Shown: positions 2,746 to 28,038, counted from the first letter of the stretch. The stretch: DNA of 28,038 nucleotides from Methanotrichaceae archaeon (GCA_963754945.1 CAVWIG010000049.1:1-28038), one strand, 5' to 3'. The notes: generated by a model from the sequence alone, not told the origin. Translations and numbers: made by a program.

Positions 2746-2805
2746 TTGATGAAGAGGATAAAGGCATCATTGGATCGCTTTAGACATCGAGAGCGAGATT
2801 CACGT

Positions 2806-4272
2806 ATGAACAAGGATAGCGAAAATTGGCAAGGATACGAATGGACTGCACTCTCAGTCACTACAATAGGCACCTTCCTCGCTTCTGTCCAGGGTTCTGC
2901 GTTGCTCATTGCACTACCTGAGATCTTGACCCATTTGCAGACCGACTTCATAACTATAATGTGGGTGATCCTGAGCTTCATGCTCATCACCACGGCCCTT
3001 GTACCTGTGGTTGGACGACTAGCTGACATGTTCGGGCGCAAGAACCTATACAATGCAGGCTTTGCCATCTTCACGCTGGGCTCTCTTCTATGCGCTTTGT
3101 CTCAGCCCCAGTTCCATGGCTGGGATCTTGTGCTCTATCGCATTGTCCAGGGTGTAGGCGGCGCCATGCTCTTCGCAAATGGTGCGGCCATAGTAACGGA
3201 TGCCTTCCGCAAAGGCAGGATTGGACTGGGCCTAGGCGTGAACCAGATCGCGTTAGCTGCAGGATTCCTGCTAGGGCCGGTTATAGGCGGGATCTTGACC
3301 GCCATCTCCTGGCAATGGGTGTTCCTGATCAATGTACCTTTGGGTGCTATAGGCACCGTCTGGGGCTTTTTAAAGCTGCGAGAACCCGTCAGTCTGGCCG
3401 TAAACCAACGCTTTGACTGGATGGGCAGCTTCACATTTACAATTGGCCTGGGATCGTTATTGCTATCAGTCTCCCTGATCGCCTTCCCGCTGATAAGCAT
3501 CAAATACGTCTATGCTTTGTTTATTTGCGCTATTCTTGCCCTAACTGTATTCTTTGTTGTGGAGAGACGCGTTGATCAACCCATGCTGGACTTCAAGCTC
3601 TTCAAGGACAAGCTCTTTGCCCACGCCTCTGCTGCTAATGCCCTAAATGGGCTTGCCCGGGGAGCTGTGCTATTTGTTCTGATCTTCTTCCTCCAGGGGC
3701 CTTACGGTCAGGACCCTCTATGGGCAGGAATAATGATGGCCCCCTTCGGTGCGGCTTTCATGCTTGTCGGCCCAATTTCAGGTTACCTCTCAGACAGATA
3801 TGGCTCAAGGGGGCTGGCTACTGCCGGTCTGTTGGTATCGGCTATTGGATTGGCTGGTTTAAGTACAGTTGTTAGCACTACATCCTATTGGATTCTAGCT
3901 GTGTTTATGGCCCTGATGGGTGGAGGTTCAGGACTTTTTGCCTCCCCTAACATGAACGCTATTATGTCAGCGGTCCAACCAGGCCAGAGGGGTATAGCAG
4001 CAGGTACCAACACTATGCTCATGAACACTGGGCAGATGCTCAGCATAGCCATAGCTTTCCCTTTGGTGCTCAGCCGCATACCTTTGGATGTTATGTTTCG
4101 TGTCTTCCTATATGGCGGAGGCATGAGTGGCACGCCTCAGGCCCTACTAGATTTTGAGATGGGGACGCATGAGGCGTTCTTGGTATCCTTTGCTGTAACT
4201 TTGGTCGCGGCCGTAGTATCCTTCCTGAGACCTTCATTTGATCAAAAATCACCAATCGATAAGCACGACTAG
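2806..4272 (+). CDS. MFS transporter, DHA2/14-TMS drug:H+ antiporter-like (copy 1)
   Basis: Motif A GRLADMFGRK, motif C GFLLGPVIGG, second motif A GYLSDRYGSR and about 14 hydrophobic segments. Start placed at ATG 2806 by alignment with the paralogues. Confidence 0.92.
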   Translation: MNKDSENWQGYEWTALSVTTIGTFLASVQGSALLIALPEILTHLQTDFITIMWVILSFMLITTALVPVVGRLADMFGRKNLYNAGFAIFTLGSLLCALSQPQFHGWDLVLYRIVQGVGGAMLFANGAAIVTDAFRKGRIGLGLGVNQIALAAGFLLGPVIGGILTAISWQWVFLINVPLGAIGTVWGFLKLREPVSLAVNQRFDWMGSFTFTIGLGSLLLSVSLIAFPLISIKYVYALFICAILALTVFFVVERRVDQPMLDFKLFKDKLFAHASAANALNGLARGAVLFVLIFFLQGPYGQDPLWAGIMMAPFGAAFMLVGPISGYLSDRYGSRGLATAGLLVSAIGLAGLSTVVSTTSYWILAVFMALMGGGSGLFASPNMNAIMSAVQPGQRGIAAGTNTMLMNTGQMLSIAIAFPLVLSRIPLDVMFRVFLYGGGMSGTPQALLDFEMGTHEAFLVSFAVTLVAAVVSFLRPSFDQKSPIDKHD

Positions 4273-4431: not shown

Positions 4432-4878
4432 TCAGCGAACTATTAGGACAGGCAGCTTTGAGTTGTGAACTACTTTTTCCGCTACGCTGCCCATGAGGAA
4501 CTTTTCCAGTCCAGTCTTTCCGATGCTGCCCATTACTATCGTATCTATCTTCTCGTCTTCTGCAATCCTCAATATCTCGCTGGGAGGATTTCCCTCGACA
4601 ATCTGCCTTTCACTTATAACGCCGGAAGCTCTTGCTAGTTCGCTCACTTGAAGCGTAACCGTTTCTCCAGTTTCCCTGATGCTTGCCACTACGCTATCGA
4701 TTGCTTCTGGGCTGACTCCTCCAAAGGGAGGGATAAAAGATGCTGAATACTTGCCGATATCTGCAACATAGACAATAATGACTTTTCCTCCTGAGAGCTT
4801 GGCGAGTTCAATGCCGACCTTTGCCGCTTTTTCGCTAAATTTCGACCCATCAGTTGCGATAAGAATACGCTCAAACAT
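4432..4878 (-). CDS. Universal stress protein (UspA family)
   Basis: ILIATDGS, IVMGSIG, MGSVAEKVV and LPVLIVR motifs. Confidence 0.95.
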   Translation of the reverse strand: MFERILIATDGSKFSEKAAKVGIELAKLSGGKVIIVYVADIGKYSASFIPPFGGVSPEAIDSVVASIRETGETVTLQVSELARASGVISERQIVEGNPPSEILRIAEDEKIDTIVMGSIGKTGLEKFLMGSVAEKVVHNSKLPVLIVR

Positions 4879-5038: not shown

Positions 5039-5701
5039 ATGAAGATTCTAGGAATAAATGGAAGCCCCAGGGGCTCTAAGAGCCAGACCCTAACACTTGT
5101 CAAGGCAGTATTGGAGGGTGCAAAAGCTTCCGGCGCAGATGTCGAGCTAGTGGATGCTTGCAATCTGAGGATAAATTATTGCAATGCTTGCGACGTATGT
5201 TACGCCAAAGGCAGGTGTATTCACGAAGATGATTTCGAGGGTCTCTATCGCAAGATGCTAGATAGTGAAGGACTGATCCTGGCATCTCCTGTGTATTTCA
5301 GATCCATCACCGCTCAGCTAAAGACATTGATAGACCGAATGGCGGATGCTATTCACTGTCAGCTTCTAACAGGGAAGTATGGGTGTGCAGTTGCGACCGC
5401 AGGAAGCCCTAATTATGCAGAGGTAACGGATTACCTTAGCCGGATAATTATAGGATTTGGTGCATCCGCAGTAGGTAGTGTTGGTGCTACTCCATCAATT
5501 CCTGGCGATATAGAAGCTAAGAAGAAGGAGGCTTTCAAGCTCGGGCAAACACTAGCCGAAGCAATAAAGACAAAGCGTACCTATCCTGAACAAGATGTGA
5601 TACATAATGAAACGCGCAAACGCTTTAAATTGCTAGTGGAGATGAATAAAGATATTTGGACTCATGAATATGAGCATTGGAAGAAGATGGGTTGGCTTTG
5701 A
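5039..5701 (+). CDS. Iron-sulfur flavoprotein / NADPH-dependent FMN reductase family
   Basis: INGSPR FMN-binding loop, CNACDVCYAKGRC (Cx2Cx2Cx5C) cluster motif, ASPVY and LKTLIDR. Confidence 0.9.
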   Translation: MKILGINGSPRGSKSQTLTLVKAVLEGAKASGADVELVDACNLRINYCNACDVCYAKGRCIHEDDFEGLYRKMLDSEGLILASPVYFRSITAQLKTLIDRMADAIHCQLLTGKYGCAVATAGSPNYAEVTDYLSRIIIGFGASAVGSVGATPSIPGDIEAKKKEAFKLGQTLAEAIKTKRTYPEQDVIHNETRKRFKLLVEMNKDIWTHEYEHWKKMGWL

Positions 5702-5773
5702 GGGGTTGCTTCTATGAATCCAGGGATGATTCTTTTGGTGAATTCATGATGATTCACGTATCAGGATTAAAGC

Positions 5774-5821
5774 ATGAGCGATGATTCTGCGAATTGGCAG
5801 GGCTACGAGTGGACGACGCTC
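5774..5821 (+). pseudogene. 5' fragment (16 codons) of a fourth MFS paralogue
   Basis: MSDDSANWQGYEWTTL matches MNKDSENWQGYEWTAL (copy 1) and MNDDPENLEGYEWTAL (copy 2). Similarity stops abruptly after this point. Confidence 0.85.
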
Positions 5822-5984
5822 CATCACCAGGTTCGACTTATAGTCAAGAACCTAAAGATTCATACTTATAGACCATCCAGATGAGTCGTCGCATGCCGTT
5901 ATTAGTATCGATCTTAAGGTGCTACACTATAATTTCCTCGCCGTTCTCACTTTGATCTGCCCTAATTTTGTTGGAATGGTCTTG

Positions 5985-6003
5985 CTATCGATTTTTTCGA
6001 TAG
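5985..6003. terminator. Hairpin CTATCGA-TTTTT-TCGATAG just downstream of the tetR stop
   Basis: Perfect 7-bp stem 6 nt past the TetR stop codon. Function is inferred. Confidence 0.3.
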
Positions 6004-6009
6004 AGGGAT

Positions 6010-6633
6010 TCACTGGATTTTTACTTTGATTCCATTTAGTAACGTCGAAATCATTACTGTAATAACCGATTCGTTGTCCAATGTATTTGTGAGTAAGTGG
6101 TACCAGTTGAAGCCAAAAAAGAGATCAATAAGAACCTCATAATTGGCTCTCTCAATTTCTTCCCGTGCCATTGCACGATCAAGCAATTGCTGCAAGAACA
6201 TCCGTTGTCTTGGCATAAATGCAGCCTGCAATTGGTTAAGCGATTGAACATTGGACTGCGCACTGGCGATCAAATGCCGAAATGCTTTACCTCTTGCAGT
6301 TTCCCGCCACAAATGCCAGATTCGTAGCGAAAGTTCATTTAATTCTTCCTCCAGGGAACCCATATCTGGGATGCATATCTTGCTGGCAACGTCTGAATCA
6401 TATAGGTCTATGAATAATGAGGCCTTGTCTGGGTACCACCGGTATATGGTTTGCTTTCCAACACCCGCACGTTTAGCGATTGCCTCAATGCTGATAGTAC
6501 TAAGTGGCTGTTCGGTTAACAAATCTGCGAGGGCCGTTAACACTGCTTGGCGAGCTCGTTGGCATCTGCGGCGCTCGTCTGGCTGTGAGCGATGATCGTG
6601 AGGATTGCTTTTCTTCGTTGTGGAGTGTGCCAT
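6010..6633 (-). CDS. TetR/AcrR family transcriptional regulator
   Basis: HTH SIEAIAKRAGVGKQTIYRWYPDK. The C-terminal domain resembles the TetR_C_11 type. Start placed at ATG 6633 (MAHSTTKK). Confidence 0.92.
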   Translation of the reverse strand: MAHSTTKKSNPHDHRSQPDERRRCQRARQAVLTALADLLTEQPLSTISIEAIAKRAGVGKQTIYRWYPDKASLFIDLYDSDVASKICIPDMGSLEEELNELSLRIWHLWRETARGKAFRHLIASAQSNVQSLNQLQAAFMPRQRMFLQQLLDRAMAREEIERANYEVLIDLFFGFNWYHLLTNTLDNESVITVMISTLLNGIKVKIQ

Positions 6634-6677
6634 AGATCTAATTAAACAATGCTTAATGTATTTAATTCTAGGCAAAG

Positions 6678-6695
6678 AGACGAGACGTACCGTCT
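6678..6695. promoter_or_regulatory. Candidate TetR operator AGACG-N8-CGTCT
   Basis: Inverted repeat AGACGagacgtacCGTCT about 45 nt upstream of tetR, in the divergent region before the radical SAM operon. Confidence 0.5.
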
Positions 6696-6913
6696 AATTT
6701 TTATAGCATCAATTCACATGCAGAATAATTAGATACAAGACATTCGGATAGCTGAATAGGATACTCCACAACTTCGATCTAGAACAGGTGCTAGCTGTTG
6801 CATTCACAACGCGATGCCGAGGCCGGGTCAACCCGTTTGTTCCTGCAACACCGACAGGAAATCAATAGAGAGAGTTCGCGCAACCATCGAGACTCGCAGA
6901 AGGAGGTTAATGC

Positions 6914-8347
6914 TTGGAGGACGAAATTGCCGCTTCATTTAGCACAGTAAAAAAATGGATAGGCAACCCGGTCTCAATAGGCTTGCTCAAATTTATCGCA
7001 AGAGAGGATAAATGCGGGAACAGGCTATCGCTGGCCATCGACTATTACCTCGGCGAGCCGGTCGAAGCGTGCTGGAAGTGCAGGCTGGCCGGTCGGCTCG
7101 TGTGCCGCATTCTCAGCACAGGTGAGAATTTTTTCGGTGTTCGGGACAACGACGTCAGAAACGCGTTTAAACAGCCGCCATTTAAGATGGGCTTAGTGAA
7201 CATCCTGCGAAGCATATCTATCTACGGTGTCACTAGGCCTCAAAAGATCTATGCGCCCATCCTCGTCGTCTGGGACTGCACGCACGCCTGCAACCTGATG
7301 TGCAAGCACTGCTACCAGGACGCGCAAAAGAAGCTCCCTGATGAGCTGTCCACAGAGGAATCAAAACGGATGATCGACGGGCTGGCCAGTGCTGGAGTGA
7401 TCGTTCTGGCATTTTCGGGCGGTGAGCCGCTCATGAGAAAGGATTTTTTTGAAATAGCTGAGTACGCACATGAGAAAGGCCTGTACCTGTCCCTGGCCAC
7501 TAATGGAACCCTGATCACGAGGGAAATAGCCAAAAAACTAAAAGAATCTGGCTTAGAGTACGTTGAGATCTCCATCGACGGTAAAGACGCCCCCAACCAT
7601 GATGGATTCAGAGGGGTGCAGGGTATGTTCGAGAGATCTGTTGAAGGAATCAAAAATTGTGTGGCAGAGGAACTGTACACTTGCATCGCCACGACCCCTA
7701 CTAAACAAAACCTCCAGGATATCCCCCGGATATACGATCTGGCGTGCGAACTGAAGGCTGCCAGGATAGTCTTGTTCAACTTCATACCAACCGGCAGGGG
7801 TGCCGGGATGGCTGGGAGCGATCTATCGCCAGAAGAGAGAGAAGCGTTGTTGAAGCAGATGTTCAAAAAGAACTACGAAGGTGCGACCGAGGTGTTATCC
7901 ACCGCACCGCAATATGCTAGGGTGGCATTGGGGCTGGATGGATTGTCTGTCGGGCATTTTTTGACATACAAAAACGTCGATAACTGCATGCTGACGCTGC
8001 TCGAGTTCATCGGTGGGTGTGGCGCAGGAAGGCACTACTGCTGCATCAGACCCAATGGTGATATCGAACCGTGTGTGTTCATGCGGCTGAAAGTAGGGAA
8101 CGTCCGAGAAAGCGATCGGTTAGACATCTGGCATAATTCGCCGGTACTCGATCGGTTGAGGGATAGGAGCAAGCTTCAAGGCCACTGTGCAGTGTGCGAT
8201 CATAAATACGTGTGCGGTGGTTGTCGAGCAAGAGCCCTGGCGTACTTCGGAGACCTGAACGCCCCTGATCCAGGATGCATAAATAACATGAACAGCTGGA
8301 ACATGCTCTGCAAATCTCCTGTTTACTCAACGGAGCTTAAAGCTTGA
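6914..8347 (+). CDS. Radical SAM/SPASM protein, resembling the GMGT synthase (Gms) family
   Basis: CNLMCKHC (CxxxCxxC), FSGGEP, and SPASM cysteines GCGAG...EPC...CAVC...CGGCR...DPGC. A ~110-aa N-terminal extension (GNPxxxxLL...CWKC...YGVTRPQ) is recalled from archaeal Gms-like proteins. AGGAGG lies 7 nt before the TTG start. Radical SAM/SPASM is secure; Gms is an inference. Confidence 0.65.
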   Translation: MEDEIAASFSTVKKWIGNPVSIGLLKFIAREDKCGNRLSLAIDYYLGEPVEACWKCRLAGRLVCRILSTGENFFGVRDNDVRNAFKQPPFKMGLVNILRSISIYGVTRPQKIYAPILVVWDCTHACNLMCKHCYQDAQKKLPDELSTEESKRMIDGLASAGVIVLAFSGGEPLMRKDFFEIAEYAHEKGLYLSLATNGTLITREIAKKLKESGLEYVEISIDGKDAPNHDGFRGVQGMFERSVEGIKNCVAEELYTCIATTPTKQNLQDIPRIYDLACELKAARIVLFNFIPTGRGAGMAGSDLSPEEREALLKQMFKKNYEGATEVLSTAPQYARVALGLDGLSVGHFLTYKNVDNCMLTLLEFIGGCGAGRHYCCIRPNGDIEPCVFMRLKVGNVRESDRLDIWHNSPVLDRLRDRSKLQGHCAVCDHKYVCGGCRARALAYFGDLNAPDPGCINNMNSWNMLCKSPVYSTELKA

Positions 8348-9801
8348 ACGATGATCCTGAGAATTTGGAGGGCTACGAGTGGACTGCTCTCTCTGTCACC
8401 ACCGTGGGAGCTCTGCTCGCCTCGATCCAGGGTTCAGCCCTCATTATTGCCCTGCCAGACATCTTGACCCGTTTGCATACCGATTTCATAACCATCATGT
8501 GGGTGCTCCTGGGCTACCTCCTCATCACCACTGCGGTTGTGCCCGTTGTAGGACGGTTGGCCGATATGTTCGGTCGCAAGAACCTGTACAATGCAGGCTT
8601 CGCTGTCTTCACCCTAGGTTCATTGCTTTGCGCCTTATCTCAACCCCAGTTCCACGGCTGGGACCTGGTAGGCTATCGTCTTATCCAGGGAGTTGGTGGA
8701 GCCTTACTCTTCACCAACAGCGCGGCCATAGTGACAGATGCCTTCCGACATGGTCGCGTTGGACTGGGGCTAGGGGTGAACCAGATTGCCGCAGCGGCTG
8801 GATTCCTGATCGGTCCGGTTGTTGGAGGACTTCTAACAGCCTTCTCCTGGCAATGGGTTTTCTTGGTCAACGTTCCCTTGGGCATTGCTGGAACTGTTTG
8901 GGGAATACTCAGGTTGCGTGAACCGGTCTCTTTGCCTACAAACCAGCACTTTGATTGGCTAGGCAGTCTGACATTCGTCTTTGGCCTGGGATCGCTTCTT
9001 CTGGCCGTATCCCTGGTAGCCTTTCCGCTAATTAGCATTTCATACGTCTACATTCTCTTCGTCTGCGCTGTCGTCGGCCTGGCCGTCTTCTTCGTGGTGG
9101 AGAGGCGCGTTGATCAGCCCATGCTGGACTTCGGACTCTTTAGGGACAGGTTGTTTGCTTATGCATCAGCAGCCAGATTTCTGAATAGCCTTGCCAGAGG
9201 TGCGGTGCTTTTCGTCCTGATCTTTTTCCTTCAGGGTCCTTACAGACTCGACCCGCTAAGCGCTGGGATCATGATGGCCCCTTTCGGTGCGGCTTTCATG
9301 CTGGTCGGGCCGGTATCAGGCCATCTCTCAGATAGGTACGGCTCTAGAGGACTGGCTACAGCTGGCCTGATGGTCTCAGCCATCGGGCTACTGGGCCTGG
9401 CAACAGTGGTAGGCACCACGCCCTACTGGCGGATTGCCCTATACATGATCCTCATGGGTGGGGGCTCGGGCCTTTTCGCTTCTCCCAACACGAACGCCAT
9501 CATGTCCTCGGTTCCCCCAGAAAAGAGGGGTATGGCCTCGGGCACTAACGTCATGCTGATGAACACGGGCAGCATGCTCAGCATAGCCATAGGCTTCCCT
9601 CTAGTGCTCAGCCGCATTCCTGTGGATGTTATGTTCCATGTATTTCTTTATGGAGGCGGCATGAGCGGTACGTCTCTTGCTGACTTCGAAACGGGTATGC
9701 ACGAGGCATTTCTGGTATCGTTCGTCGTAACCCTTGTGGCAGCTATGGTATCCTTCCTGAGGCCTTCTCGGCGATCTGTAGAACATGGAGGACTGGAATA
9801 A
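8344..9801 (+). CDS. MFS transporter, DHA2/14-TMS (copy 2)
   Basis: Same motifs as copy 1. TTG start overlaps the radical SAM stop (TTGA). Confidence 0.92.
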   Translation: MNDDPENLEGYEWTALSVTTVGALLASIQGSALIIALPDILTRLHTDFITIMWVLLGYLLITTAVVPVVGRLADMFGRKNLYNAGFAVFTLGSLLCALSQPQFHGWDLVGYRLIQGVGGALLFTNSAAIVTDAFRHGRVGLGLGVNQIAAAAGFLIGPVVGGLLTAFSWQWVFLVNVPLGIAGTVWGILRLREPVSLPTNQHFDWLGSLTFVFGLGSLLLAVSLVAFPLISISYVYILFVCAVVGLAVFFVVERRVDQPMLDFGLFRDRLFAYASAARFLNSLARGAVLFVLIFFLQGPYRLDPLSAGIMMAPFGAAFMLVGPVSGHLSDRYGSRGLATAGLMVSAIGLLGLATVVGTTPYWRIALYMILMGGGSGLFASPNTNAIMSSVPPEKRGMASGTNVMLMNTGSMLSIAIGFPLVLSRIPVDVMFHVFLYGGGMSGTSLADFETGMHEAFLVSFVVTLVAAMVSFLRPSRRSVEHGGLE

Positions 9802-9803
9802 GC

Positions 9804-11267
9804 ATGAACAATGTTGTTCATCCTCTTATTAAAGAAAGGACAGTTTCCTCCCTGTGTCCCACCTGCCTGAAGGTCATCAATGCCCGTATATTTCAGGAGG
9901 GCGAGGCAGTTATGATCGATAAGCGATGCGAGGAGCATGGCAATTTCAGAGATACATACTGGTCAGACGTAACCCTTTATGAAAGGTTTATGAGATACTG
10001 GATTGACGGATCAGGCATCGATGGTTCATCCCAGGCTCGTCAAGGCTGCCCATTCGATTGCGGCATATGCGAGAACCACAAAACAGGAACCCTGCTGGGG
10101 AACATCGATGTTACCAGCAGGTGCAACCTGTCCTGCCCGGTCTGTTTTGCCGATGCAGGTAATAGTGCAGACGAGCCGACAATGGACCAGCTCAGGACTA
10201 TGATGCAGATCCTGAGGGATCAGAGGCCAGTTCCCTGCTCCGCAATCCAGTTCTCCGGCGGCGAGCCTACCATGAGAGATGACCTGCCGGAGATTGTGGC
10301 ACTGGCAAGAAAATTGGGCTTCTTTCAGATTCAACTAGCAACCAATGGTATTAAGCTCGCCAGCAGGCCAAATCTCTGCAGGGACTTAGTGCGAAATGGG
10401 CTCACAACCATCTACCTTCAGTTCGATGGAGTCACGCCAGAGCCCTACGAGACATTGCGAGGCGGTGACCTCTTGCCGATGAAATACCAGGCCATCGAGA
10501 ACCTGAGAGCAGCAAAACAAATGAGCATAGTGTTGGTTCCTACTCTGGCAAAGGGCGTAAATGACGGCCAGATAGGTGATATCGTGAAATTCGCCTTCAG
10601 CAACTCGGACGTGGTAAAGGGCGTGAACTTCCAGCCTATCTCCTTTGCGGGAAGGATCGATCAGGTGGAAAGGGCAAAGAAGAGGATTACCATACCGGAC
10701 ATTCTCGCACTGCTGGAGGATCAGACGGATAACGAAATAACCAGAGACGACTTCTACCCTGTTCCTTTTGTAGCACCTATATCAAGACTCATAGCCGCTG
10801 AGACCGGCGTGCTCCAGCCTTCTCTGACCGTTCACCCTTGCTGCGGTGCAGGTACATACGTTTACCGTGTCAACGGCCGTATGATTCCTATTACCAGGTT
10901 TGTAGATGTCGAGGGGCTCATGGAGAGCATCAAAGAGGCAGTCCAGGATTATGATGGATCAAGGGTGGGCAGGCTGAGGATGAACGGCATGATCCTTAAA
11001 GAGATGCGGAAATTCATAGATGAGTCGAGAATGCCTGGCAGTCTGAACCTCACCGCACTGCTCCTGAGCGTCTTCAGGAATGGGACTTGGGAATCCCTGG
11101 CCGAGTTCCATAATAATAGCCTCTTTCTCGGCATAATGCACTTCCAGGACTTGTATAACATGGACCTGGAGAGATTGCAGAGGTGCGGAATTCACTACGT
11201 CCTGCCGGACGGCAGGATAGTACCCTTTTGCTCCTACAACACTGTTCATCGCTGTTCGATCATCTAA
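9804..11267 (+). CDS. tes: Tetraether lipid synthase Tes (GDGT-MAS, MJ0619 family radical SAM)
   Basis: Rubredoxin-like SLCPTC...CEEHG, auxiliary CPFDCGICENH, radical SAM CNLSCPVC, then YLQFDG, LVPTLAKGVND, NFQPISFAGR, DFYPVP, HPCCG, MHFQDLYN and RCGIHY...DGRIVPFCSYN. Colinear with the MJ0619 sequence as I recall it. Confidence 0.9.
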   Translation: MNNVVHPLIKERTVSSLCPTCLKVINARIFQEGEAVMIDKRCEEHGNFRDTYWSDVTLYERFMRYWIDGSGIDGSSQARQGCPFDCGICENHKTGTLLGNIDVTSRCNLSCPVCFADAGNSADEPTMDQLRTMMQILRDQRPVPCSAIQFSGGEPTMRDDLPEIVALARKLGFFQIQLATNGIKLASRPNLCRDLVRNGLTTIYLQFDGVTPEPYETLRGGDLLPMKYQAIENLRAAKQMSIVLVPTLAKGVNDGQIGDIVKFAFSNSDVVKGVNFQPISFAGRIDQVERAKKRITIPDILALLEDQTDNEITRDDFYPVPFVAPISRLIAAETGVLQPSLTVHPCCGAGTYVYRVNGRMIPITRFVDVEGLMESIKEAVQDYDGSRVGRLRMNGMILKEMRKFIDESRMPGSLNLTALLLSVFRNGTWESLAEFHNNSLFLGIMHFQDLYNMDLERLQRCGIHYVLPDGRIVPFCSYNTVHRCSII

Positions 11268-11295
11268 TGAATAGAGTAGCATGGGATTGATGTAG

Positions 11296-11645
11296 ATGAT
11301 TATGGCAATGCTTCTCGTTACGCTGGGAATTGTTTGCATCGGATTGACTCTGGCCGGCTTCATGAACAGCCTGGAGTGCTATGGTACCATACCATAATGA
11401 CATTCGTAAACCTGCCTATGTTCTTACTCAGTGGCGCGCCTATTTCCCGTGAATAACCTTCCGTCCCGGCTTAAGGGGTCGTTTACATCAACCCTCTTAC
11501 GTATGATGTAGATGCGCTGAGGGCGGTTATACTCAGCAATGCATATGTTTCGCCCTTCACAATCCAAGTCGATGTGCTATTCCTTCTTATCTTCGATGTT
11601 GTCATGATACTGGTAGGAACTTATGAGCTCAGCCTCCGTAAATAA
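11296..11645 (+). pseudogene. ABC-2 type permease C-terminal remnant
   Basis: MIMAMLLVTLGIVCIGLTLAGFMNSLE / IMTFVNLPMFLLSGA / LFPVNNLP / YINPLTYDVDALRAVIL...GTYELSLRK*. LSGAxFP and NPLTYxVDALR are ABC-2 motifs. Contains a 5-bp ACCAT duplication and further frameshifts. Confidence 0.85.
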
Positions 11646-11650
11646 TCTAA

Positions 11651-13060
11651 CTGTACTTTCCAAGTTTCTCCTTTATTTATATTTTCTAAATTATATCAAA
11701 TTATATTTTCAATCCCATGCTTCTGAGTATATAAAGCAATCCGCCTTCCGGTACGGGTATATTAAAATACATCAGCACATATTCAAATGTTTCACCTAAT
11801 GCTTGCATTTTTACTAGGTCGATCATGTCGCCCATAGTTCTTGGATTTGAACCGTCCCCAGATGGCGGATTGTCTATTTCCCATAAGAGAATCGCAGTCC
11901 ATACTGAGAAGACTAGCTGAATAAATCTTTCAATTGATTGTTTTTCTCTTAATTGGTAACCTTTGAATCCTAATTTTTGATTTGTCTCTCTGTGGGCCGT
12001 CTCGATATCCCATCTATCCTCGTAAATTGAGAGTATTTCTTTCGACGAAAGCGATTCATTAGTGCTTATAAAATATTTTGTAGTGCTCTCCTTTTTTCTC
12101 TTTGAGACTACAAGTTTAACTTCGCCTACCTTGTCTATGACTACCTTCTTTTCAAATGCATAGTAGGTCTTCTTTTTGCCCCGAACACTAATAGTTGTCT
12201 TAATAAAATACTTATCCTCAATTTGGTTTGCTAAGTCTCTAACCTGAAAACACATGTCCTTATTTATCCTGATTTTCTTATCAGATTTGATTTGGCAGAC
12301 TATATTATGCCCTAATTTGAGACACTTGTTAAAGAGATCAGAAGAAAACCACCAGCTATCGAAAACGATATAAAGGTCCATGCTTTTTGGTACTTCTAAT
12401 GGTTCAATGATCTCGTCCAAGGCAATCTCCATTTTTGTTCTAAAATTCTCATTTTCGTCATCATTCTTGATATACATCTTAGCTTTATGTGGTATGAATA
12501 ATCCTTTGGATTGGATAACAGAGGTAACAAAATTGTTACCCCAAATGTAGGTTTCTTTACTATGATCATAAAATTTTCCTACACCTTCCGTTTGAGTTCC
12601 TTCCTTCTCATTGTATGTGTCATCAATTATTAACAACATTCTATCATTTTCTTTTAAACATAATTTCTCAATAAAAAGGTCCACTTTGCGTTGAGCAACT
12701 TCATCCTCGTCCCAATTCGCATCGCTAAAGAACCAATTGTACGAAGAGCGTGCTTTTTTTCCTTTCCTACATTCGGCCATAGTATCACAAAGGTTGGAAA
12801 CGGTCTTGGATTTATCACACACGCTTAACGCTCCACACAAATCTCGAAACGATCCATAACTCGGTTTCGTAAAAAGATCCTGAAATTCATTCAAGAACGG
12901 CTCTAATTGCAATGGTACCTTTATTATTTTGATCATTCTACTCCCAAAAGAGAGAATTTGATCCTAGTATAAAACCCTTACTTTTTATTTTTTTTATTAA
13001 ATTTATATTCTAATTTAATCTGATGATATTATAAATATACGAAAAAGTTGGAAAGTACAG
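11651..13060 (-). mobile_element. Complete 1410-bp IS, IS701-like DDE family
   Basis: Terminal inverted repeats CTGTACTTTCCAAGTTTCTC (11651) and GAAAAAGTTGGAAAGTACAG (ends 13060), 18/20 match. Direct repeat TAATCTAA at 11643-11650 and 13061-13068. Confidence 0.92.
11701..12936 (-). CDS. DDE transposase (IS701-like)
   Basis: LIIDDT, VFDSWW and YEDRWDIETAHR (Y-2-R-3-E signature). Enclosed by terminal inverted repeats. Confidence 0.9.
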   Translation of the reverse strand: MIKIIKVPLQLEPFLNEFQDLFTKPSYGSFRDLCGALSVCDKSKTVSNLCDTMAECRKGKKARSSYNWFFSDANWDEDEVAQRKVDLFIEKLCLKENDRMLLIIDDTYNEKEGTQTEGVGKFYDHSKETYIWGNNFVTSVIQSKGLFIPHKAKMYIKNDDENENFRTKMEIALDEIIEPLEVPKSMDLYIVFDSWWFSSDLFNKCLKLGHNIVCQIKSDKKIRINKDMCFQVRDLANQIEDKYFIKTTISVRGKKKTYYAFEKKVVIDKVGEVKLVVSKRKKESTTKYFISTNESLSSKEILSIYEDRWDIETAHRETNQKLGFKGYQLREKQSIERFIQLVFSVWTAILLWEIDNPPSGDGSNPRTMGDMIDLVKMQALGETFEYVLMYFNIPVPEGGLLYILRSMGLKI

Positions 13061-14698: not shown

Positions 14699-15892
14699 TC
14701 ACAGAGTGGTTGGCGAACCCGGGACACGGTTCTGAGGGCTCTTCTCCAGGATGCAGGTAGGGTCCTCGCCCAGCATGTCGCCAAGAAAGTGAAACGCCTT
14801 CTGCCTGCACCCTCCACACAGGTCCAGGTACTCGCAGCCCCCGCAGGCCCCTTTGAGGTTGTTCCTCATCTCACGAAGCGCCTTCAACTCTTCGACCGGG
14901 TTATCTATCCAGATATCGCGGAAGCTGCGCTCACGAACATTGCCTACAACCACCTGAGGCATGAAGTGACAGGGATGGACATCTCCACGATGGTTAATGT
15001 TGGCCACTTTCGATCCCGTCGAGCAGCCTCCAGCATTTGTCAGCAGCTGGCGAACTGTCTCACGCCTGGGGTCGTCCTTCAACAGCTCCAGTAGATAGGC
15101 TCCATCCATTGGTGAGTCAGTGGTCAGTATCTCGATCTCCTGGTCCTTCAGCTCCACGGCTGCTTCCGCCAACAGCTTGATCACGCTTCTGCGCTGCTCA
15201 GGTGTGACATCCTTCTCAGCAATCCCGGCCCCGCGTCCAGTAGGCACCAGATGGTACAGACAGAACCGGGGGATGTCCTCCTTCAGGGCCAGGTCAAGAA
15301 GTGCAGGTATCTCAAACCAGTTATCTCTGGTCAATGTGACCCGTAGCCCGGTCTTAAGGCCCGCCTCACGAGCGTTGCGGATGCCCTGCAAGGCTCTAGC
15401 ATGGGCTCCCTTGACCCCTCGAAACTTGTCGTGCGACTCTGGCCTAGCAGAATCCAAGCTGACACCGACGTACCTGATCTTCGCCTCGGCCAGAAGCCTG
15501 GCTACCTCAGGAGTGATTTGTGTACCGTTAGTGGATAAGGCCGTCCCCAGACCGGCTTCACGGGCGTGAAAGGCATAGGCATAAAAATTCTTGCTGAGGA
15601 GGGGCTCACCGCCGGTGAAGATCAGTACTGGAACCTTCATTTCTGCAAGGTCGTCAATTAGCCGAACTCCTTCTTCCAGACCAAGTTCGTCTCGGGCTTC
15701 GTCCTGAGCGTCCAGATAGCAGTGATCACAAGAAAGGTTGCATTTCCTGGTCAGGTTCCACATGATTACAGGCCGAGCCATTCCAGAGAACCTGGCCAAG
15801 TCGGGAGGCAGGTTTTCACAGGTCTCCGATGATGCCCTCAGAGCTTTCCAGACTGTGGCCTGGTCGGCGAGGGCCTTGGAGAATATTATCAT
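14699..15892 (-). CDS. ahbC: Radical SAM/SPASM protein, AhbC/NirJ1-like (Fe-coproporphyrin synthase of the alternative heme pathway)
   Basis: LPPDLARFSG.ARPVIMWNLTRKCNLSCDHCY, YVGVSLD, RFCLYHLVPTGRG and SPASM cysteines. Start overlaps the cobA/hemD stop. Confidence 0.75.
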   Translation of the reverse strand: MIIFSKALADQATVWKALRASSETCENLPPDLARFSGMARPVIMWNLTRKCNLSCDHCYLDAQDEARDELGLEEGVRLIDDLAEMKVPVLIFTGGEPLLSKNFYAYAFHAREAGLGTALSTNGTQITPEVARLLAEAKIRYVGVSLDSARPESHDKFRGVKGAHARALQGIRNAREAGLKTGLRVTLTRDNWFEIPALLDLALKEDIPRFCLYHLVPTGRGAGIAEKDVTPEQRRSVIKLLAEAAVELKDQEIEILTTDSPMDGAYLLELLKDDPRRETVRQLLTNAGGCSTGSKVANINHRGDVHPCHFMPQVVVGNVRERSFRDIWIDNPVEELKALREMRNNLKGACGGCEYLDLCGGCRQKAFHFLGDMLGEDPTCILEKSPQNRVPGSPTTL

Positions 15893-17361
15893 TATTCGGA
15901 CCTCTTACTCTTGCGCAGAGCTCGTAGAAGTGCCTCGAAGGTGAACTCCTCAGGCATAACATCCACCCTAACCCTGAGCCGCTCAAGCTCTGCCGCCGTA
16001 GGCTTTCCTATTGCTGCCACTTTGGCCTTGGCCAACGCCTCTCTAAGAGGTGCCTCTAGGCCAAGCTCACCTGCTCGTTCGACCAGACATTTGGCAGTCG
16101 ATGAGCTGGTGAAGGCGAAGATGTCTATTGCCGAGGCTCTCCTGATAAGGTCATCCAGCCTTGGGTCGTTTGAGCCGGTCACTTCGTAGAGGGGAATATC
16201 GTCTATCGTTAGTCCAGCGAGCATCAAGTCATCCGACAGGTACTGGCTGCCCCGGGCGCTTCTCAGGAAGAGTACATTTTTGCACCGGTTCCTGAGCAGA
16301 ATCTCCAGACCCTTTGAGCTGTACTCCTCCGGCACCTCAGAAGTCAGGCCGTGCCTGTCCAGCGCCTGTCGGGTCTTAGGACCGATAGAGACTATCATCT
16401 TACCCTTCAGCCCTGCCCTTATTGGGTCATTTTCAAGGGCTATATCCACTCCGTTTGCGCTTGTGAAGACCACACACTCCGCTGCCTTAACTCTCTGGAC
16501 AAGGTCGCCTGGGAGGGGCCTTTTTACAAGGGAGATGGAAGGAGCGCATATGGCCTGAAACCCGTAATCTCGGGCCAACTCGGCAGAGTCCTGCATCTGT
16601 GCATCGGGCCGGAATATTGCTATCTTTTTTGGCGCTAATTGCTCAGCCAACTTCACCACGTCTCCGACCACAAGGATAGCTGGAGGCTCTATCCCGGCAT
16701 CCTTTGCCTTGGACGCGATATTCTCCAGGGTGCCTGAGATCATCCTCTGTTCCGCCCATCCGCCTTTCTCAACGATAGCTGCAGGAGTCTCTGAAGACCG
16801 TCCGCCGGAGATAAGGGCGGATACATTCTTCTCAAGCCGGGATACGCCCATTAGAACAACAAGGGTCCCGTTCAGCCTGGCCAGGGCGCTCCAGTCCAGA
16901 GGGCTATCCTTTCCCGGCTCCTCGTGGCCGGTCACTATCGTAAGTGAAGAGGTCACACCCCTGTGAGTGACGGGAATGCCGGCCAGCTCAGGGGCAGCAA
17001 TGGCCGATGTGACTCCGGGAACTACCTCGAAGGGAATTCCCCGCTCCAGCAGGGCCAGGGCCTCCTCGCCTCCGCGGCCGAAGAGGTATGGGTCTCCTCC
17101 CTTGAGCCGAACTACAACCTTCCCCTCTTCTGCCTTGTCAATCAGAAGCTGGTTGATCTCCTCCTGGGTCATCTTGTGGTTTCCCGCAGTCTTGCCAACG
17201 TCTATCAGCTCCGTGCCCTCCAGGCCCTTCAACATCTCCGGGCTCAGCAGCCGGTCGAACAAAACGACTTCCGCCTCCGAGAGAAGCCTTTTAGCCTTTA
17301 GGGTCATCAGCTCCGGGTCTCCTGGACCGGCGCCCACAAGATAGACTTTACCTCTTGCCAA
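15892..17361 (-). CDS. cobA: Fused uroporphyrinogen-III C-methyltransferase / uroporphyrinogen-III synthase (CobA-HemD)
   Basis: VYLVGAGPGDPELMT, RLKGGDP and VPGVTSA in the N-terminal part. HemD domain with FTSANGV, IGPKT and FTSSSTA in the C-terminal part. Confidence 0.95.
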   Translation of the reverse strand: MARGKVYLVGAGPGDPELMTLKAKRLLSEAEVVLFDRLLSPEMLKGLEGTELIDVGKTAGNHKMTQEEINQLLIDKAEEGKVVVRLKGGDPYLFGRGGEEALALLERGIPFEVVPGVTSAIAAPELAGIPVTHRGVTSSLTIVTGHEEPGKDSPLDWSALARLNGTLVVLMGVSRLEKNVSALISGGRSSETPAAIVEKGGWAEQRMISGTLENIASKAKDAGIEPPAILVVGDVVKLAEQLAPKKIAIFRPDAQMQDSAELARDYGFQAICAPSISLVKRPLPGDLVQRVKAAECVVFTSANGVDIALENDPIRAGLKGKMIVSIGPKTRQALDRHGLTSEVPEEYSSKGLEILLRNRCKNVLFLRSARGSQYLSDDLMLAGLTIDDIPLYEVTGSNDPRLDDLIRRASAIDIFAFTSSSTAKCLVERAGELGLEAPLREALAKAKVAAIGKPTAAELERLRVRVDVMPEEFTFEALLRALRKSKRSE

Positions 17362-18253
17362 CCGCCCTCACCGCCTCATCTACCAGGGTTCTCCCGCCCA
17401 TCTCTAACAACCTTCTGCCCAGCTCCGACGCCCGCTCCAGGCTGCACGCAGGTATCACCTCATCGATGCGAACAAACCTGGTACCGTCAAGGGAGAGGAC
17501 CTCAGCCACCACCTGCGCCTCGTCGTCACTCACTTGGGCGTGAATCGCCACTGGAACTACGCACCCACCCCCCACAGTCTCTAGGATTCTTCGCTCGATC
17601 ATCGTCTCTGTCCTTGTGGGCAAGTCGTCTAAGGATCGCGCCAGCCTATCTGCCACAGTTCCTTTTTTGGCTACGGCCACTATAGTTCCCTGATTGGCTG
17701 ATGGCACGAACTTTTCAGGATCAAGTACGGTGTACTCCAGCTCTATGCCCATCCGCTGTACTCCTGCCTCGGCCAGGACTATTGCATCGTAATCTCCTTG
17801 GTTCAGCTTCCGGAGCCTTGTTTGCAGGTTTCCCCGCAAGCTATGGATCTGAAGATCGGGCCTAGCCCGCTTTAGCTGAGCTGATCTGCGCATGCTTGAT
17901 GTACCGACGGCTGCTCCATTCGGGATATCATCCAGCTTCAAACCGTCCCTGGTTACCAGGATGTCGTAGGGCGAGTCGCGCTTTAGAATCGCCACGATGT
18001 CAAGCTCTTCCGGCCTCTTGGTGGGGATATCCTTCATGCTGTGAACCGCCAGGTCGATCTCTCCCGAGAGCATTCTGTCGTCTATCTCGGCCACAAACAC
18101 TCCCCAGCCGGAGAGCTGATAGAGGGGCTTGTCAAGGAAAACGTCTCCACTGGTCTTGACTATGCATAGATCAACGTCTACACCCAACTCCTTCAATCGG
18201 TTTACGACTATCTCCGTCTGCCGTAGGGCCAGAGGGCTTCCCCGGCTTCCCAC
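17348..18253 (-). CDS. hemC: Hydroxymethylbilane synthase (porphobilinogen deaminase)
   Basis: GSRGSPLAL, DLAVHSMKD, GTSSMRR, LRGNLQTRL and GGGCVVP. Confidence 0.97.
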   Translation of the reverse strand: MGSRGSPLALRQTEIVVNRLKELGVDVDLCIVKTSGDVFLDKPLYQLSGWGVFVAEIDDRMLSGEIDLAVHSMKDIPTKRPEELDIVAILKRDSPYDILVTRDGLKLDDIPNGAAVGTSSMRRSAQLKRARPDLQIHSLRGNLQTRLRKLNQGDYDAIVLAEAGVQRMGIELEYTVLDPEKFVPSANQGTIVAVAKKGTVADRLARSLDDLPTRTETMIERRILETVGGGCVVPVAIHAQVSDDEAQVVAEVLSLDGTRFVRIDEVIPACSLERASELGRRLLEMGGRTLVDEAVRAVGKR

Positions 18254-18255
18254 GG

Positions 18256-19524
18256 TTAGCCTTTCAGGTTTGACTTATAGGCCTCCAGTGTCTTATCAAT
18301 ATCATCCTTGGAGTGGGCAGCAGATATAAAGTCTGTCTCAAACTGGCTAGGGGTCAGGAATATCCCTGAGTCCAACATCCTGCGGAAGAAGCTTATGTAT
18401 CCGGACTTATCGCACCTAAGGGCGCTCTCGTAGTCCCAGGGCAGAGGGCCAAAAAAGACCTTGAACATTGACGCTATGCCAGTGACGCTGTACCCTAGAT
18501 TAAGGTCGCTTACGATCTCAGACAATGCCTTGCGCATTTCGTTCCCAACGGCGTTAAGCTTCTCTAAGATATTCTCCTTCTCCAAGATATCAAGGGTCGC
18601 CGAGCCCGCTGCCAGGGAGACAGGACTTCCGTTGAAAGTCCCAGCCTGGTACACGCCGCCGCTGGGAGCCACCTGCTCCATGAGGTCTCTTCTGCCGCCG
18701 AAGACACCCACAGGGAAGCCGCCGCCGATGATCTTTCCTAGAGTAGTAAGGTCGGGCTTGACTTCGTAATACTCCTGGGCTCCACCCAGACTCAGCCGAA
18801 AGCCAGTTATGACCTCGTCGAAGATCAAGAGAACGTCGTTCTCCTCCGTAAGAGCGCGCACTCCCTGCAGGTAGCCATCCTTGGGAAGAACGGTGCCTAT
18901 GTTTCCAAGCACCGGCTCAATTATCAAAGCTGCGATCTGCCCTGGAAAGCGCTTTAGTATTTTTTCAAGCGATGCAAGATCGTTGTAAGGAACTTGAAGG
19001 GTGTTTTTTGCGGTGTCCAGGGGCACGCCCTTCGAGTCGGGGACGCCTAGAGTTGTGGCTCCAGATCCTGCTTTTATGAGAACACTGTCATGGGCTCCAT
19101 GAAAACCGCCCTCGATCTTGATTATCTTATCCCGTCCTGTTGTACCTCTGGCTACTCTGAGTGCTGCCATTGTAGCCTCAGTGCCGGTGGAAACGAACCT
19201 GAGCATCTCCATGCTCGGATACAGGCGACTTATTCTTCCCGCCAGGATGACCTCCATCTCGCTTGGTGTGCCGTAAAGCCAGCCCCTCTGAAGCTGGTCC
19301 ACAACAGCCTTCATGACCTCAGGATTCCTGTGTCCAAGGATCATGGGACCGTAGGCCAGACAATAATCGATCAGCCTGTTCCCTTCAAGGTCCCAGAGGT
19401 AAGGCCCTTCGGCCCGTGAGGTGTAGAACGGAGCAGGAGAAATGGCCCGAACTGGGCTACTAACCCCACCGGGCATCAGTTTTTTGGCGGACTCGAAGAT
19501 CTTCGTTGAGGCATCAAAACGCAT
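18256..19524 (-). CDS. hemL: Glutamate-1-semialdehyde 2,1-aminomutase
   Basis: [29 protein letters not shown] and YQAGTFNG. Confidence 0.97.
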
Positions 19525-23254: not shown

Positions 23255-23536
23255 AGCTAGAATAATCTTGCTTGAAGTGTTAAATAACAATCTGGTCTTT
23301 GAACTCCACCGCCAGCCTAACGAGTAGCATGCCTGTAGTGAGAACCACCAGAATCTCAAGCGGGTAATTCTTCAAGGCACTGATCGTCCCCACCAGCTGG
23401 TTCATGTTGGCGTTGCCTGAGCCCAGATTTGCGTCTCCGATCACGCAAATATGGGGATCTTTCCCTCGGTGAGATGAAATTACATCTGTTGTTAAATACT
23501 CCTTCTTACCTGGAATCATCCACAGTGAGTGTTCAA

Positions 23537-24990
23537 ATGACGGAAGAAGTCGATGCGGAGTGGAAAGGCTACGAGTGGGTGGCCCTATCGGTGACAACAG
23601 TTGGCGCTCTGCTGGCCTCGATTCAGGGATCAGCGCTGCTCATAGCCCTGCCAGAGATCATGACCCACCTTCAGACCAGCTTTTTGACCATCATGTGGGT
23701 CATCCTGAGCTTCATGCTGATCACCACCGCTGTGGTCCCAGTGGTAGGCAGGCTGGCCGACATGTTCGGCAGGAAGAATCTCTACAACGCAGGCTTCGCA
23801 GTCTTCACTCTTGGGTCGCTACTGGCCGGTCTCTCCCAGCCTCAGTATCACGGCTGGGACTTGGTCCTTTTCCGTGTGGTCCAGGGAATAGGAGGCGCAC
23901 TGCTATTAACGAACAGCGCTGCCATAGTCACCGATGCTTTCCGGCACGGTCGCATCGGTTTCGGCTTAGGGGTGAACCAGATCGCATTCGCCGCAGGCTT
24001 CCTGGTGGGACCCGTCGTTGGTGGCATACTGGCAGCAATCTCGTGGCGATGGATATTCCTGGTCAATGTGCCTTTAGGGATCTTCGGCACTATCTGGGGA
24101 ATGGCAAGATTGCGCGAGCCCGTCTCTCTTCCTGGAAACCAGAAGTTTGACTGGCTGGGCAGCCTCAGCTTCACAGCGGGCCTGGGTGCTCTGCTCCTGG
24201 CCGCGTCCTTGGTGGCCTTCCCCATGGTCAGCATGAACGCCGTTTATTTGTTGTTCGTTGTCGGTGCCTTAGGTCTGATCGCCTTCTTCATCGTCGAGAG
24301 GCGTGTACACCAGCCGATGCTCGATCTTCGGCTTTTCAGGGACAAGCTCTTTGCCTATGCTTCCGCAGCCAACGGCCTGAACGGCCTAGCTCGCGGGGCA
24401 GTGCTCTTTATCCTGATCTTCTTCCTCCAGGGACCTTACGGGCTTGACCCTCTGTGGGCAGGCATCCTGATGGCTCCTTTCGGTGCCGCTTTCATGCTGG
24501 TAGGGCCGGTCTCTGGCTACCTCTCTGATAAGATCGGCTCCAGAGGGCTGGCCACGGCCGGACTCCTGGTCTCTGCGGTTGCACTGCTTGGCCTCGCAAC
24601 GGTTGTCAGCACCACTCCCTACTGGTTGCTTGCTGTCTACATGGTCCTGATGGGCGGAGGCTCAGGCCTGTTCAGCTCTCCGAACATCAGCGCCGTCATG
24701 TCCTCAGTACGGCCGGAGCAGCGCGGAATGGCAGCAGGAATAAACTCCATGCTCATGAACACAGGAATGATGCTGTCCATTGTGGTGGCTTTTCCCTGGT
24801 TCTCGCCAGGATCCCAGAGGACGTGATGTTCCACGTTTTCCTGTACGGAGGAGGCATGGCCAGTTCGCCCCAGGCGCTGGCCGCATTCGAGATGGGAATG
24901 CATCAGGCATTCCTGGTCTCTTTCGCCATAACCATGGTCGCAGCAGTTGTATCCTACCTACGGCCATCCGGCCATCGTGACTTGCCATAA
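23537..24990 (+). pseudogene. MFS transporter copy 3, single frameshift near the 3' end
   Basis: Aligns with copies 1 and 2. One base is missing at CCC 24794-24796. The -1 frame continues LVLARIPEDVMFHVFLYGGGM...VSYLRPSGHRDLP* to 24990. Confidence 0.85.
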
Positions 24991-27147: not shown

Positions 27148-28038
27148 GTGTCGCGTCAATATTGAAGTGACATAAGGTTTAAGATATATTATCTTCATAT
27201 CCAATGTGGGGTAATAGCAATGAAGAAATATATCGTAACGCTTACTGAGGACGAGCGCAAAGCTCTTAGCGACCTTACAGTCAAGGGAAAGCAAAAATCA
27301 CAGAAGATCCTCAATGCATTAATATTGCTCGGTTGTGATGAAGGTGAGTACCAAACAGAGGGCTCGACGAATGAAGAAATAGCCCGTGTGCTCCATATAA
27401 GCATGAGAAAGATAGACCGTTTAAAAAAGCGATTTGTAGAGGGAGGTCTTGATTCAGCTCTTGAAAGAAGAACGGGAAACCGCATCTATGCCAAGAAGAC
27501 CGATGGAGATTTTGAAGCCCATTTAGTTGCATTGAGTTGCAGCGAACCACCAGATGGTTTTGCGCGGTGGTCTTTGAGGCTGTTAGCCGATAAGGTCGTC
27601 GAGCTCAACTACATTGACAGCATTTCTCATGAAGCTGTGCGTCAAATTTTAAAAAAACGAGATCAAGCCATGGCAACGCAAAGGATGGGTAATTCCGCCA
27701 AATCAAAACGGTAGCTTCGTCGCAAATATGGAAAGGGTATTGGATGTTTATAAGCGTCCGTTTGATTCATATCATCCGGTTGTATGCATGGACGAATCTC
27801 CAAAGCAGCTGATATCCGAGACAAGAGTACCTATTGCAATATCTCCAGGGCGGGCTGCCAAACACGACTATGAATACAAACGCTGCGGCTTATCAAATAT
27901 TTTCCTTGCATGCGAACCGTTGGCCGGGAAGCGTATGGTAAAGGTCACTGAAAGAAAAACTGCGCTGGACTGGGCTTGCTTTATGGAAGATGTCGCCGCC
28001 CAATACGAACATGCAGAAAAGATAACATTGGTGATGGA
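27148..28038 (+). mobile_element. IS630 family element (runs off the window)
   Basis: Probable left end after TA at 27146-27147, followed by a two-frame transposase. The right end is not in the window, so the left boundary is inferred. Confidence 0.8.
27220..28038 (+). CDS. IS630 transposase, orfA/orfB joined by a -1 frameshift (partial)
   Basis: orfA HTH with RWSLRLLAD. A7C slippery site at 27651-27658. The -1 frame reads NEIKPWQRKGWVIPP...VVCMDE...DYEYKRCG...KITLVM to the window end. Confidence 0.92.

Follow-up and report, generated by a model that had tools for sequence, protein, structure and literature searches.

A gms-MFS-tes operon with a divergent TetR gene in a Methanotrichaceae archaeon: candidate module for inducible tetraether synthesis and efflux

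A 28,038-nucleotide stretch of DNA from a Methanotrichaceae archaeon (GCA_963754945.1 CAVWIG010000049.1:1-28038), referred to here as the window, carries a compact operon in which a gene for a major facilitator superfamily (MFS) transporter lies between two radical S-adenosylmethionine (SAM) genes, a gms-type gene and a tes paralogue, with a divergent TetR-family regulator gene upstream. The window corresponds to contig C49 in an assembly of 54 contigs and 2.97 Mb, with a completeness of 87.7%. The identities of the genes, their compact arrangement as an operon and their conservation as a unit were observed directly. Taken together, the sequence comparisons suggest an accessory module of four genes for a TetR-gated, inducible "harden and pump" response of the cell envelope, a tentative reading to which we give a probability of about 0.45.

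Pfam and NCBIfam searches gave the domain order radical SAM plus SPASM, MFS_1 and Tes for three contiguous open reading frames on the plus strand (Table 1). Their coordinates, TTGA overlap and 2-nt gap had been given exactly in an earlier note on this DNA. The TTG start codon of the second gene (8344-8346) overlaps the TGA stop codon of the first (8345-8347), and the TAA stop codon of the second (9799-9801) is followed by GC and then by the ATG of the third at 9804. A Shine-Dalgarno-like GGAGG or GGAG is located 8-12 nt 5' of each of the three starts. The same order, with the TetR gene on the opposite strand, recurs in genome G028 (locus L025) and twice in genome G019 (L026 and L027) of a sister genus, where the MFS start codon at the homologous position is ATG. 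Because these assemblies are independent, the gms-MFS-tes order is no assembly artefact, and chimerism via MFS paralogues was ruled out. In addition, a Logan contig from run X1, which may be the source sample, spans 7839-8913 including the gms-MFS junction, the only junction bridged among the Logan records listed, whose contigs are short. With compact junctions and a gene order conserved elsewhere, the three genes form the operon-like unit that the earlier note had described, and the search run for the MFS-tes linkage found it beyond a single genome, as proposed there.

All four module genes are under purifying selection, with a ratio of nonsynonymous to synonymous substitution rates (dN/dS) of 0.06-0.13 at a dS of 0.8-1.0. 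Identity to the G028 and G019 counterparts was 83% for gms, 91-92% for the MFS gene and 82% for tes. Between the two genera HemL is 77-78% and LarC 64-65% identical; the module genes are closer, at 78-92%. In the congeneric genome G001 only a 96-aa remnant of gms was found, beside an accessory tes. The comparisons showed a mosaic origin, in which gms nests among Methanocellales and Methanomicrobiales sequences and tes and the MFS gene are within-family duplicates.

The predicted product of the first gene, P0001, was assigned to the Gms type, an assignment that is solid at the family level. It aligned over its full length (469 aa) with the Gms of M. okinawensis at 43% identity (E 6e-122) and lies within the BLAST limits of Li et al. 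(E < 1e-50, identity > 30%, length > 420 aa). The reference used was P0304 (WP_013867022.1, UniRef name GMGT synthase), which was reached via a Methanococci locus; M. okinawensis is the species whose Gms was confirmed both in vivo and in vitro (Li et al. 2024, PMC11186832). P0001 is built from a six-helix N-terminal domain, a radical SAM core, bridging helices with a beta-hairpin and a seven-Cys SPASM domain. Pfam matched Radical_SAM and SPASM, and the CxxxCxxC motif of the core is C126/C130/C133. These three residues and C369, C387, C425, C428, C434, C437 and C455 vary little or not at all among 36 family members, and all cluster cysteines align with those of the M. okinawensis enzyme. The AlphaFold2 (AF2) model, with a predicted local distance difference test score of 89.3, showed the six N-terminal helices (2-17, 19-28, 37-45, 54-74, 78-85 and 88-104), the radical SAM core, two bridging helices, the hairpin and the SPASM domain, in agreement with the Gms layout of Li et al. 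The N-terminal 116 aa alone were collinear with the N terminus of M. okinawensis Gms (E 3e-8), gave no Pfam match even at an E value of 10, and precede the NCBIfam matches, which are to AhbD/NirJ only, sub-threshold and begin at residue 117. A search of the PDB found no Gms structure, and the ESM Atlas search returned generic radical SAM/SPASM clusters only.

In a 62-row tree, built without the Thermococcales Gms references (T. guaymasensis, T. celer and P. furiosus), 46 N-extended proteins were split from 16 AhbD/NirJ-like ones with a Shimodaira-Hasegawa-like approximate likelihood ratio support of 96. P0001 falls in a clade (support 100) with proteins of Methanocella, Methanoregula, Methanomicrobium, Methanoculleus and Methanospirillum, and the sister of this clade (support 80) unites M. 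okinawensis Gms with Archaeoglobus and Geoglobus proteins. The identity to M. okinawensis Gms, the N-terminal domain, the tree split and the AF2 layout all agree with the earlier proposal of a Gms-like protein rather than one resembling AhbC, AhbD or PqqE. The nearest relative outside the module lineage, in genome G136, is 77% identical and stands in a tes-gms arrangement with no pump gene. A metagenome scan with P0001 had a best match of 63% and did not return the 69-84% relatives of an earlier search.

Several other radical SAM/SPASM genes were recorded alongside gene 1. The window itself holds an AhbD-like gene at 14699-15892, which falls in the outgroup of the gene 1 tree. It adjoins cobA-hemD, hemC and hemL in a heme/siroheme cluster (14699-19524) that is kept in relatives (e.g. 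L236) and holds the true Ahb-type paralogue of gene 1. Another AhbD/NirJ-like paralogue lies at G000:C24:93948-94937 of the same genome; in many relatives the match to it is interrupted in frame by one or two stop codons (TGA, TAG or TAA), where the search probably read through the natural gene end. Some Methanotrichaceae carry a second Gms-type gene (L030, G019:C2:200341-201708; L033, G005:C102; L055) that shares 38-40% identity with P0001. Its grouping with sequences of Hyperthermus and Acidilobaceae (support 100) suggests a separate lateral acquisition.

The third gene was assigned to Tes with equal firmness, at the family level, as the earlier note had done. Its product scored 649.2 bits against the NCBIfam Tes equivalog NF045702 (cut-off 450), and residues 11-485 aligned with residues 22-499 of GDGT-MAS (PDB 7TOL) at an E value of 1.8e-157. 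The zinc ribbon (PF23545 in Pfam), the CPxDCxxC and CNLxCPxC motifs and the C-terminal cysteines are in register between the two proteins. The check for a second, housekeeping tes, called for in the earlier note, yielded four genes above the NF045702 cut-off in the genome. For comparison, 0, 1 or 2 copies per genome were reported across 322 methanogen genomes (Zeng et al. 2022, PMC8941075). Proteins close to the module Tes bear the names Methanotrichaceae, Methanothrix or Methanosaeta in their sources, and family f1 was taken as Methanotrichaceae. In a 27-row tree all Methanotrichaceae (f1) Tes proteins form one clade (support 99), composed of a core group, in which each genus has a single copy, and an accessory clade (support 100, 8 rows) confined to genera g1 and g4. 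Three of the four Tes copies of this genome, the module Tes among them, belong to the accessory clade. The core copy is the housekeeping one; it adjoins genes for UbiA and GT2, and about 2 kb beyond them lies a gene for a polyprenyl synthetase. Tes was found at E <= 1e-80 in 19 of 36 other Methanotrichaceae genomes searched.

The product of the middle gene, MFS_b, matched Pfam MFS_1 with an E value of 7e-57 and 193 bits (cut-off 33). Among PDB entries its matches were QacA (1.7e-38), EfpA (3.7e-29), EmrB and the putative triacylglyceride transporter 8PNL (2.9e-18), and a crude hydropathy scan gave 13 hydrophobic segments, one of them at 454-472. As the protein passes the Pfam MFS_1 cut-off, scores below that of the NCBIfam DHA2 model and has QacA as its best PDB match, it was filed as DHA2-like. 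Three more copies at 78-80% identity were found in the genome, two of them in the window, and the genes beside them encode MarR, Usp and LarC. Copies at 73-80% identity occur in 12 of 61 related genomes, all of them Methanotrichaceae. Orthologues of MFS_b proper, at 91%, are confined to the module-bearing genomes (3 of 61). MFS_b probably arose by duplication from the native pump cassette MFS_a-Usp; in G019 an MFS_a-Usp-FMN_red arrangement lies downstream of tes. As a separate observation, the copy beside LarC (MFS_c, 23429-24972) has a frameshift near 24790 that puts its C-terminal 60 residues in another frame, and is either a pseudogene or the product of an assembly error.

A divergent TetR gene, which the earlier note had overlooked, shares the intergenic region with the operon. 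Its product has a TetR_N helix-turn-helix (HTH) and a TetR C-terminal ligand domain. Although the open frame reaches back to a TTG at 6675, translation probably starts at ATG 6633-6631, a codon that is conserved in the alignment with G019 and G028; in both of these genomes a stop codon lies upstream of it. The search of 61 related genomes returned TetR orthologues from three, exactly the module carriers, with a dN/dS of 0.10-0.13. The shared intergenic region contains the palindrome AGACG-TAC-CGTCT, which directly abuts a TATA-like TTTTTATA. This block is invariant in the window, G028 and G019, and the flanking coding DNA differs by about 20%. The palindrome 15-mer is single-copy in the assembly, even when two mismatches are permitted. 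We infer that the palindrome is the operator and TTTTTATA the TATA box. Further downstream, the leader contains a 156-nt insert found in the window only; a repeat or miniature inverted-repeat transposable element was excluded as its nature, as no second copy was present in the genome.

Table 1. The module, adjoining features of the window and the tes genes of the assembly
Feature	Position	Strand	Product and start	Basis or remark
MFS_a and Usp genes	2746-4272 and 4432-4878	+ and -		native pump/stress-protein cassette, probable source of MFS_b; MFS_a 80% identical to MFS_b
FMN_red-family flavoprotein gene	5039-5701	+		Pfam
TetR-family regulator gene	6010-6633	-		Pfam TetR_N and TetR_C_11
Candidate operator and promoter	6683-6705			palindrome 6683-6695; TATA-like TTTTTATA 6698-6705
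Leader stretch, about 156 nt	6744-6899			absent from G019 and G028 (alignment)
gms-type radical SAM/SPASM gene	6914-8347	+	P0001, 477 aa, TTG	
MFS_b, DHA2/QacA-like	8344-9801	+	P0002, 485 aa, TTG	Pfam MFS_1
tes, accessory clade paralogue	9804-11267	+	P0003, 487 aa, ATG	NF045702
ISC1217-like insertion sequence, multi-copy	11650-12936 (DDE transposase 11701-12936)	-		about 380 nt downstream of tes; Pfam
Tes genes of the genome	G000:C24:78280-79773; C24:115095-116639; C46:38139-39776; window 9804-11267			

In the reading that we favor, the TetR protein would sit on the palindrome and block the promoter until a lipophilic or amphiphilic compound is bound. After its release, Tes, the Gms-type enzyme and the pump would be made together. 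Tes would join the tails of diether lipids to the membrane-spanning glycerol dialkyl glycerol tetraether (GDGT), and the Gms-type enzyme would cross-link the two biphytanyl chains to the H-shaped glycerol monoalkyl glycerol tetraether (GMGT). The DHA2-type pump would expel the offending compound by proton antiport, so that the membrane would become less permeable while the concentration of the compound is lowered. A constitutive supply of tetraethers would come from the housekeeping tes beside UbiA. An efflux role is favored for the pump because the best characterised MFS relatives are efflux pumps and because its paralogues stand beside MarR and Usp genes.

QacR controls qacA, and the module resembles such TetR-regulated DHA2 pumps in its divergent TetR gene, its intergenic palindrome and a DHA2-like pump with QacA as best PDB match; it differs in having two genes for lipid-modifying radical SAM enzymes in the putatively regulated transcript and an archaeal TATA-type promoter. 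The proposed response also parallels a published link between MFS genes and the cgm/pgm genes for GDGT methylases (Garcia et al. 2025 preprint, 10.1101/2025.10.20.683597). According to that preprint, PF07690 occurs in 56% of GDGT methylase gene neighbourhoods, often with MarR, the MFS genes were read as amphiphile exporters, amphiphiles trigger lipid tailoring, and both penicillin G and hexanoic acid bring about methylation and cyclisation. Both systems combine a gene for a tetraether-tailoring radical SAM enzyme with a PF07690 pump and a regulator that senses small molecules, and the proposed logic, a response to membrane-destabilising compounds, would be shared. The module differs from the system described there in that the enzymes are Tes and Gms rather than B12 methylases, the pump gene lies inside the operon and the regulator is TetR; its response would create tetraethers and not only decorate them.

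Compared with the known Gms enzymes (M. okinawensis METOK_RS04425; T. guaymasensis, T. celer and P. furiosus PF0647; PMC11186832, PMC11214058), gene 1 shares the full architecture. The six-helix N-terminal domain of Li et al. corresponds to COG4001 of Garcia et al., and the AF2 model and the alignment with M. okinawensis Gms both place such a domain in gene 1. Unlike these enzymes, gene 1 belongs to a Methanomicrobia-type clade in a mesophilic host of the Methanothrix family, and its operon partners are tes and an MFS gene under TetR instead of gmm or grs. Gene 3 resembles Tes/GDGT-MAS (MA_1486, Maeo_0574, MJ0619; 7TOL) in full-length homology and in its zinc-ribbon and Fe-S cysteine motifs, but has three paralogues in the genome and falls in an accessory clade of two genera. 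Clusters of gms with tes or with mss, another pairing of gms with a gene for a membrane-spanning lipid enzyme, were reported in bacteria (Garcia et al. 2024, PMC11214058). The module differs from these clusters, as described there, in being archaeal, in the pump gene between the enzymes and in the TetR switch. Archaeal tes-gms pairs without a pump were found at G136/L119, L147 and L156, and no description of a gms-MFS-tes operon was found in the literature searched.

Several observations weigh against the inducible response. RNA runs covering positions 5900-11700 of the window were sought in the run listing, and none was found. The P0001 clade contains no validated enzyme and in the 62-row tree is not bracketed by validated enzymes. 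Furthermore, the approximately unbiased (AU) test kept a topology with this clade as the first branch of the family (p 0.51); the constraint, which joined the clade to the outgroup, asks only for the position of the root and has no bearing on AhbD membership. GMGT is therefore the product of gene 1 by homology only. As regards gene 3, a second Tes homologue of M. acetivorans, MA_1114, was reported to form no GDGT and only traces of macrocyclic archaeol (PMC8941075), so the accessory Tes may differ in its product as well. Both radical SAM enzymes could act on another isoprenoid or lipid, such as macrocyclic archaeol or species derived from hydroxyarchaeol, and the pump may export the product. 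The MA_1114 result, the position of the P0001 clade and the three accessory Tes copies in the genome would fit such a role, as would the lipids of cultured relatives, which the earlier note had correctly named as diether producers: Methanosaetaceae are known for archaeol and hydroxyarchaeol (PMC6581649, citing Koga et al.). Against it, all cluster-binding cysteine motifs and the full architecture are retained in both enzymes, Tes clears the equivalog cut-off by a wide margin, and the published Gms clade includes 67 Methanomicrobia sequences (Garcia et al. 2024, PMC11214058). We regard a role on another lipid as very improbable.

Further points against the inducible response concern the pump. 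The DHA2 model TIGR00711, the best NCBIfam model for MFS_b, was matched with 197.5 bits, below its cut-off of 230.2. The region has also been prone to MFS duplication: the window holds three copies and a remnant at 5762-5821. This remnant, which encodes 20 residues of an MFS N terminus and lies between the FMN_red and TetR genes, is a scar from rearrangement among pump copies. The pump may therefore be a passenger. It would then be a working exporter of drugs or metabolites with a substrate unrelated to the lipid enzymes, brought into the operon by local duplication and rearrangement, and its co-transcription would be a historical accident or, at most, loose co-regulation. The four paralogues at 78-80% and the remnant agree with this, as do the MFS_a-Usp and LarC-MFS_c pairs of relatives without gms and the tes-gms pair without MFS in G136, the closest outside relative.

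The linkage of pump and gms elsewhere bears on the same question. Outside the module lineage, a DHA2-like MFS gene was found within 3 kb of gms, always on the same strand, in 3 of 102 Gms-type loci, and in none of 47 AhbD-like loci; 31 metagenome loci that did not match the Gms hidden Markov model at E <= 1e-60 were left out of this count. Such a frequency is barely above the expectation from pump density and is among the points in favor of a passenger. The three loci are marR-MFS-gms with a divergent FMN_red gene (L137), gms-gmm-MFS beside hxlR (L134) and MFS-gms-gmm (L028), and at 6 of the 102 loci a tes gene stands no more than 7 kb away from gms. The recurrence of pump and gms in three operon-like loci with other regulators is suggestive, not statistically strong, and as it involves independent lineages it argues against a passenger. 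So do the distinctness of MFS_b as an orthologue group found in module genomes only, its place between gms and tes in four of four copies, its status as the most constrained of the four module genes (dN/dS 0.06-0.07, identity 91-92%) and the parallel published for GDGT methylase genes (10.1101/2025.10.20.683597). On balance, a passenger pump appears rather unlikely.

The earlier note had envisaged a transporter dedicated to tetraether biogenesis. Such a protein would serve Tes and Gms by flipping or presenting, across or within the membrane, diether substrates, tetraether products or their polar-headgroup forms, and would work like the mycobacterial MFS lipid transporters EfpA or Rv1410. EfpA carries lipids, and both it and the putative triacylglyceride transporter 8PNL are among the PDB relatives of MFS_b. 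The position of the gene between two genes for lipid enzymes, its strong purifying selection and the MFS genes beside gms-gmm in L134 and L028 would also suit this role. The comparisons showed no such dedication, though: MFS_b is a DHA2/QacA-type efflux homologue, its best matches are the drug pumps QacA and EmrB, it is one of four copies, and 99 of the 102 other Gms loci have no such gene within 3 kb. In addition, its close paralogues stand with MarR and Usp genes and not with lipid genes, the housekeeping tes has no MFS neighbour, and the validated Gms and Tes were reported to function in heterologous hosts that provide no such partner (PMC11186832, PMC8941075). We consider a lipid transporter improbable. 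Export of 5'-deoxyadenosine, a further suggestion for the MFS protein, was rejected; no evidence was found that ties DHA2 pumps to this compound.

The surroundings of the module were described in the earlier note as an accessory patch of insertion sequences (IS) and pseudogenes. This description stands for the IS elements and the frameshifted MFS gene, but in G019 the heme cluster of the window is likewise located 15-20 kb away from one module copy, and Tes is present in 19 of 36 Methanotrichaceae genomes. Besides the ISC1217-like element, whose terminal 50 nt recur on at least 10 other contigs, the window contains a TnpB/IS605 OrfB element (25447-26568) and an IS630-like HTH and DDE_3 pair (27220-28036); the latter pair was also found beside an MFS copy on C45. 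An FMN_red gene stands beside the module in all carrier genomes (the window, L025 of G028 and L027 of G019), and FMN_red genes occur near Gms genes in several unrelated lineages (L137, L138, L123 and L057). The flavoprotein is a possible electron donor for the radical SAM enzymes.

In wetlands, peat and digesters, relatives of Methanothrix rank with the most abundant methanogens, and textbooks list them as diether producers; the GMGTs of peat and sediments serve as environmental proxies. If the pump is a passenger, the finding shrinks to a new genomic context of two known enzymes. If it is a lipid transporter, it would be the first transporter of tetraether biogenesis, in a switchable kit that turns the diether bilayer of a mesophilic methanogen into a cross-linked monolayer. 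If the favored reading is true, the inducible tes-gms module would mean that GDGT-0 and GMGT also come from a mesophilic source that depends on conditions. By its place in the same transcript, the pump would tie chemical stress and efflux to membrane remodelling and extend the proposal made for GDGT methylases in the 2025 preprint to Tes and Gms. With its TetR protein and a defined candidate operator, the module would also offer a rare handle on the regulation of archaeal tetraethers.

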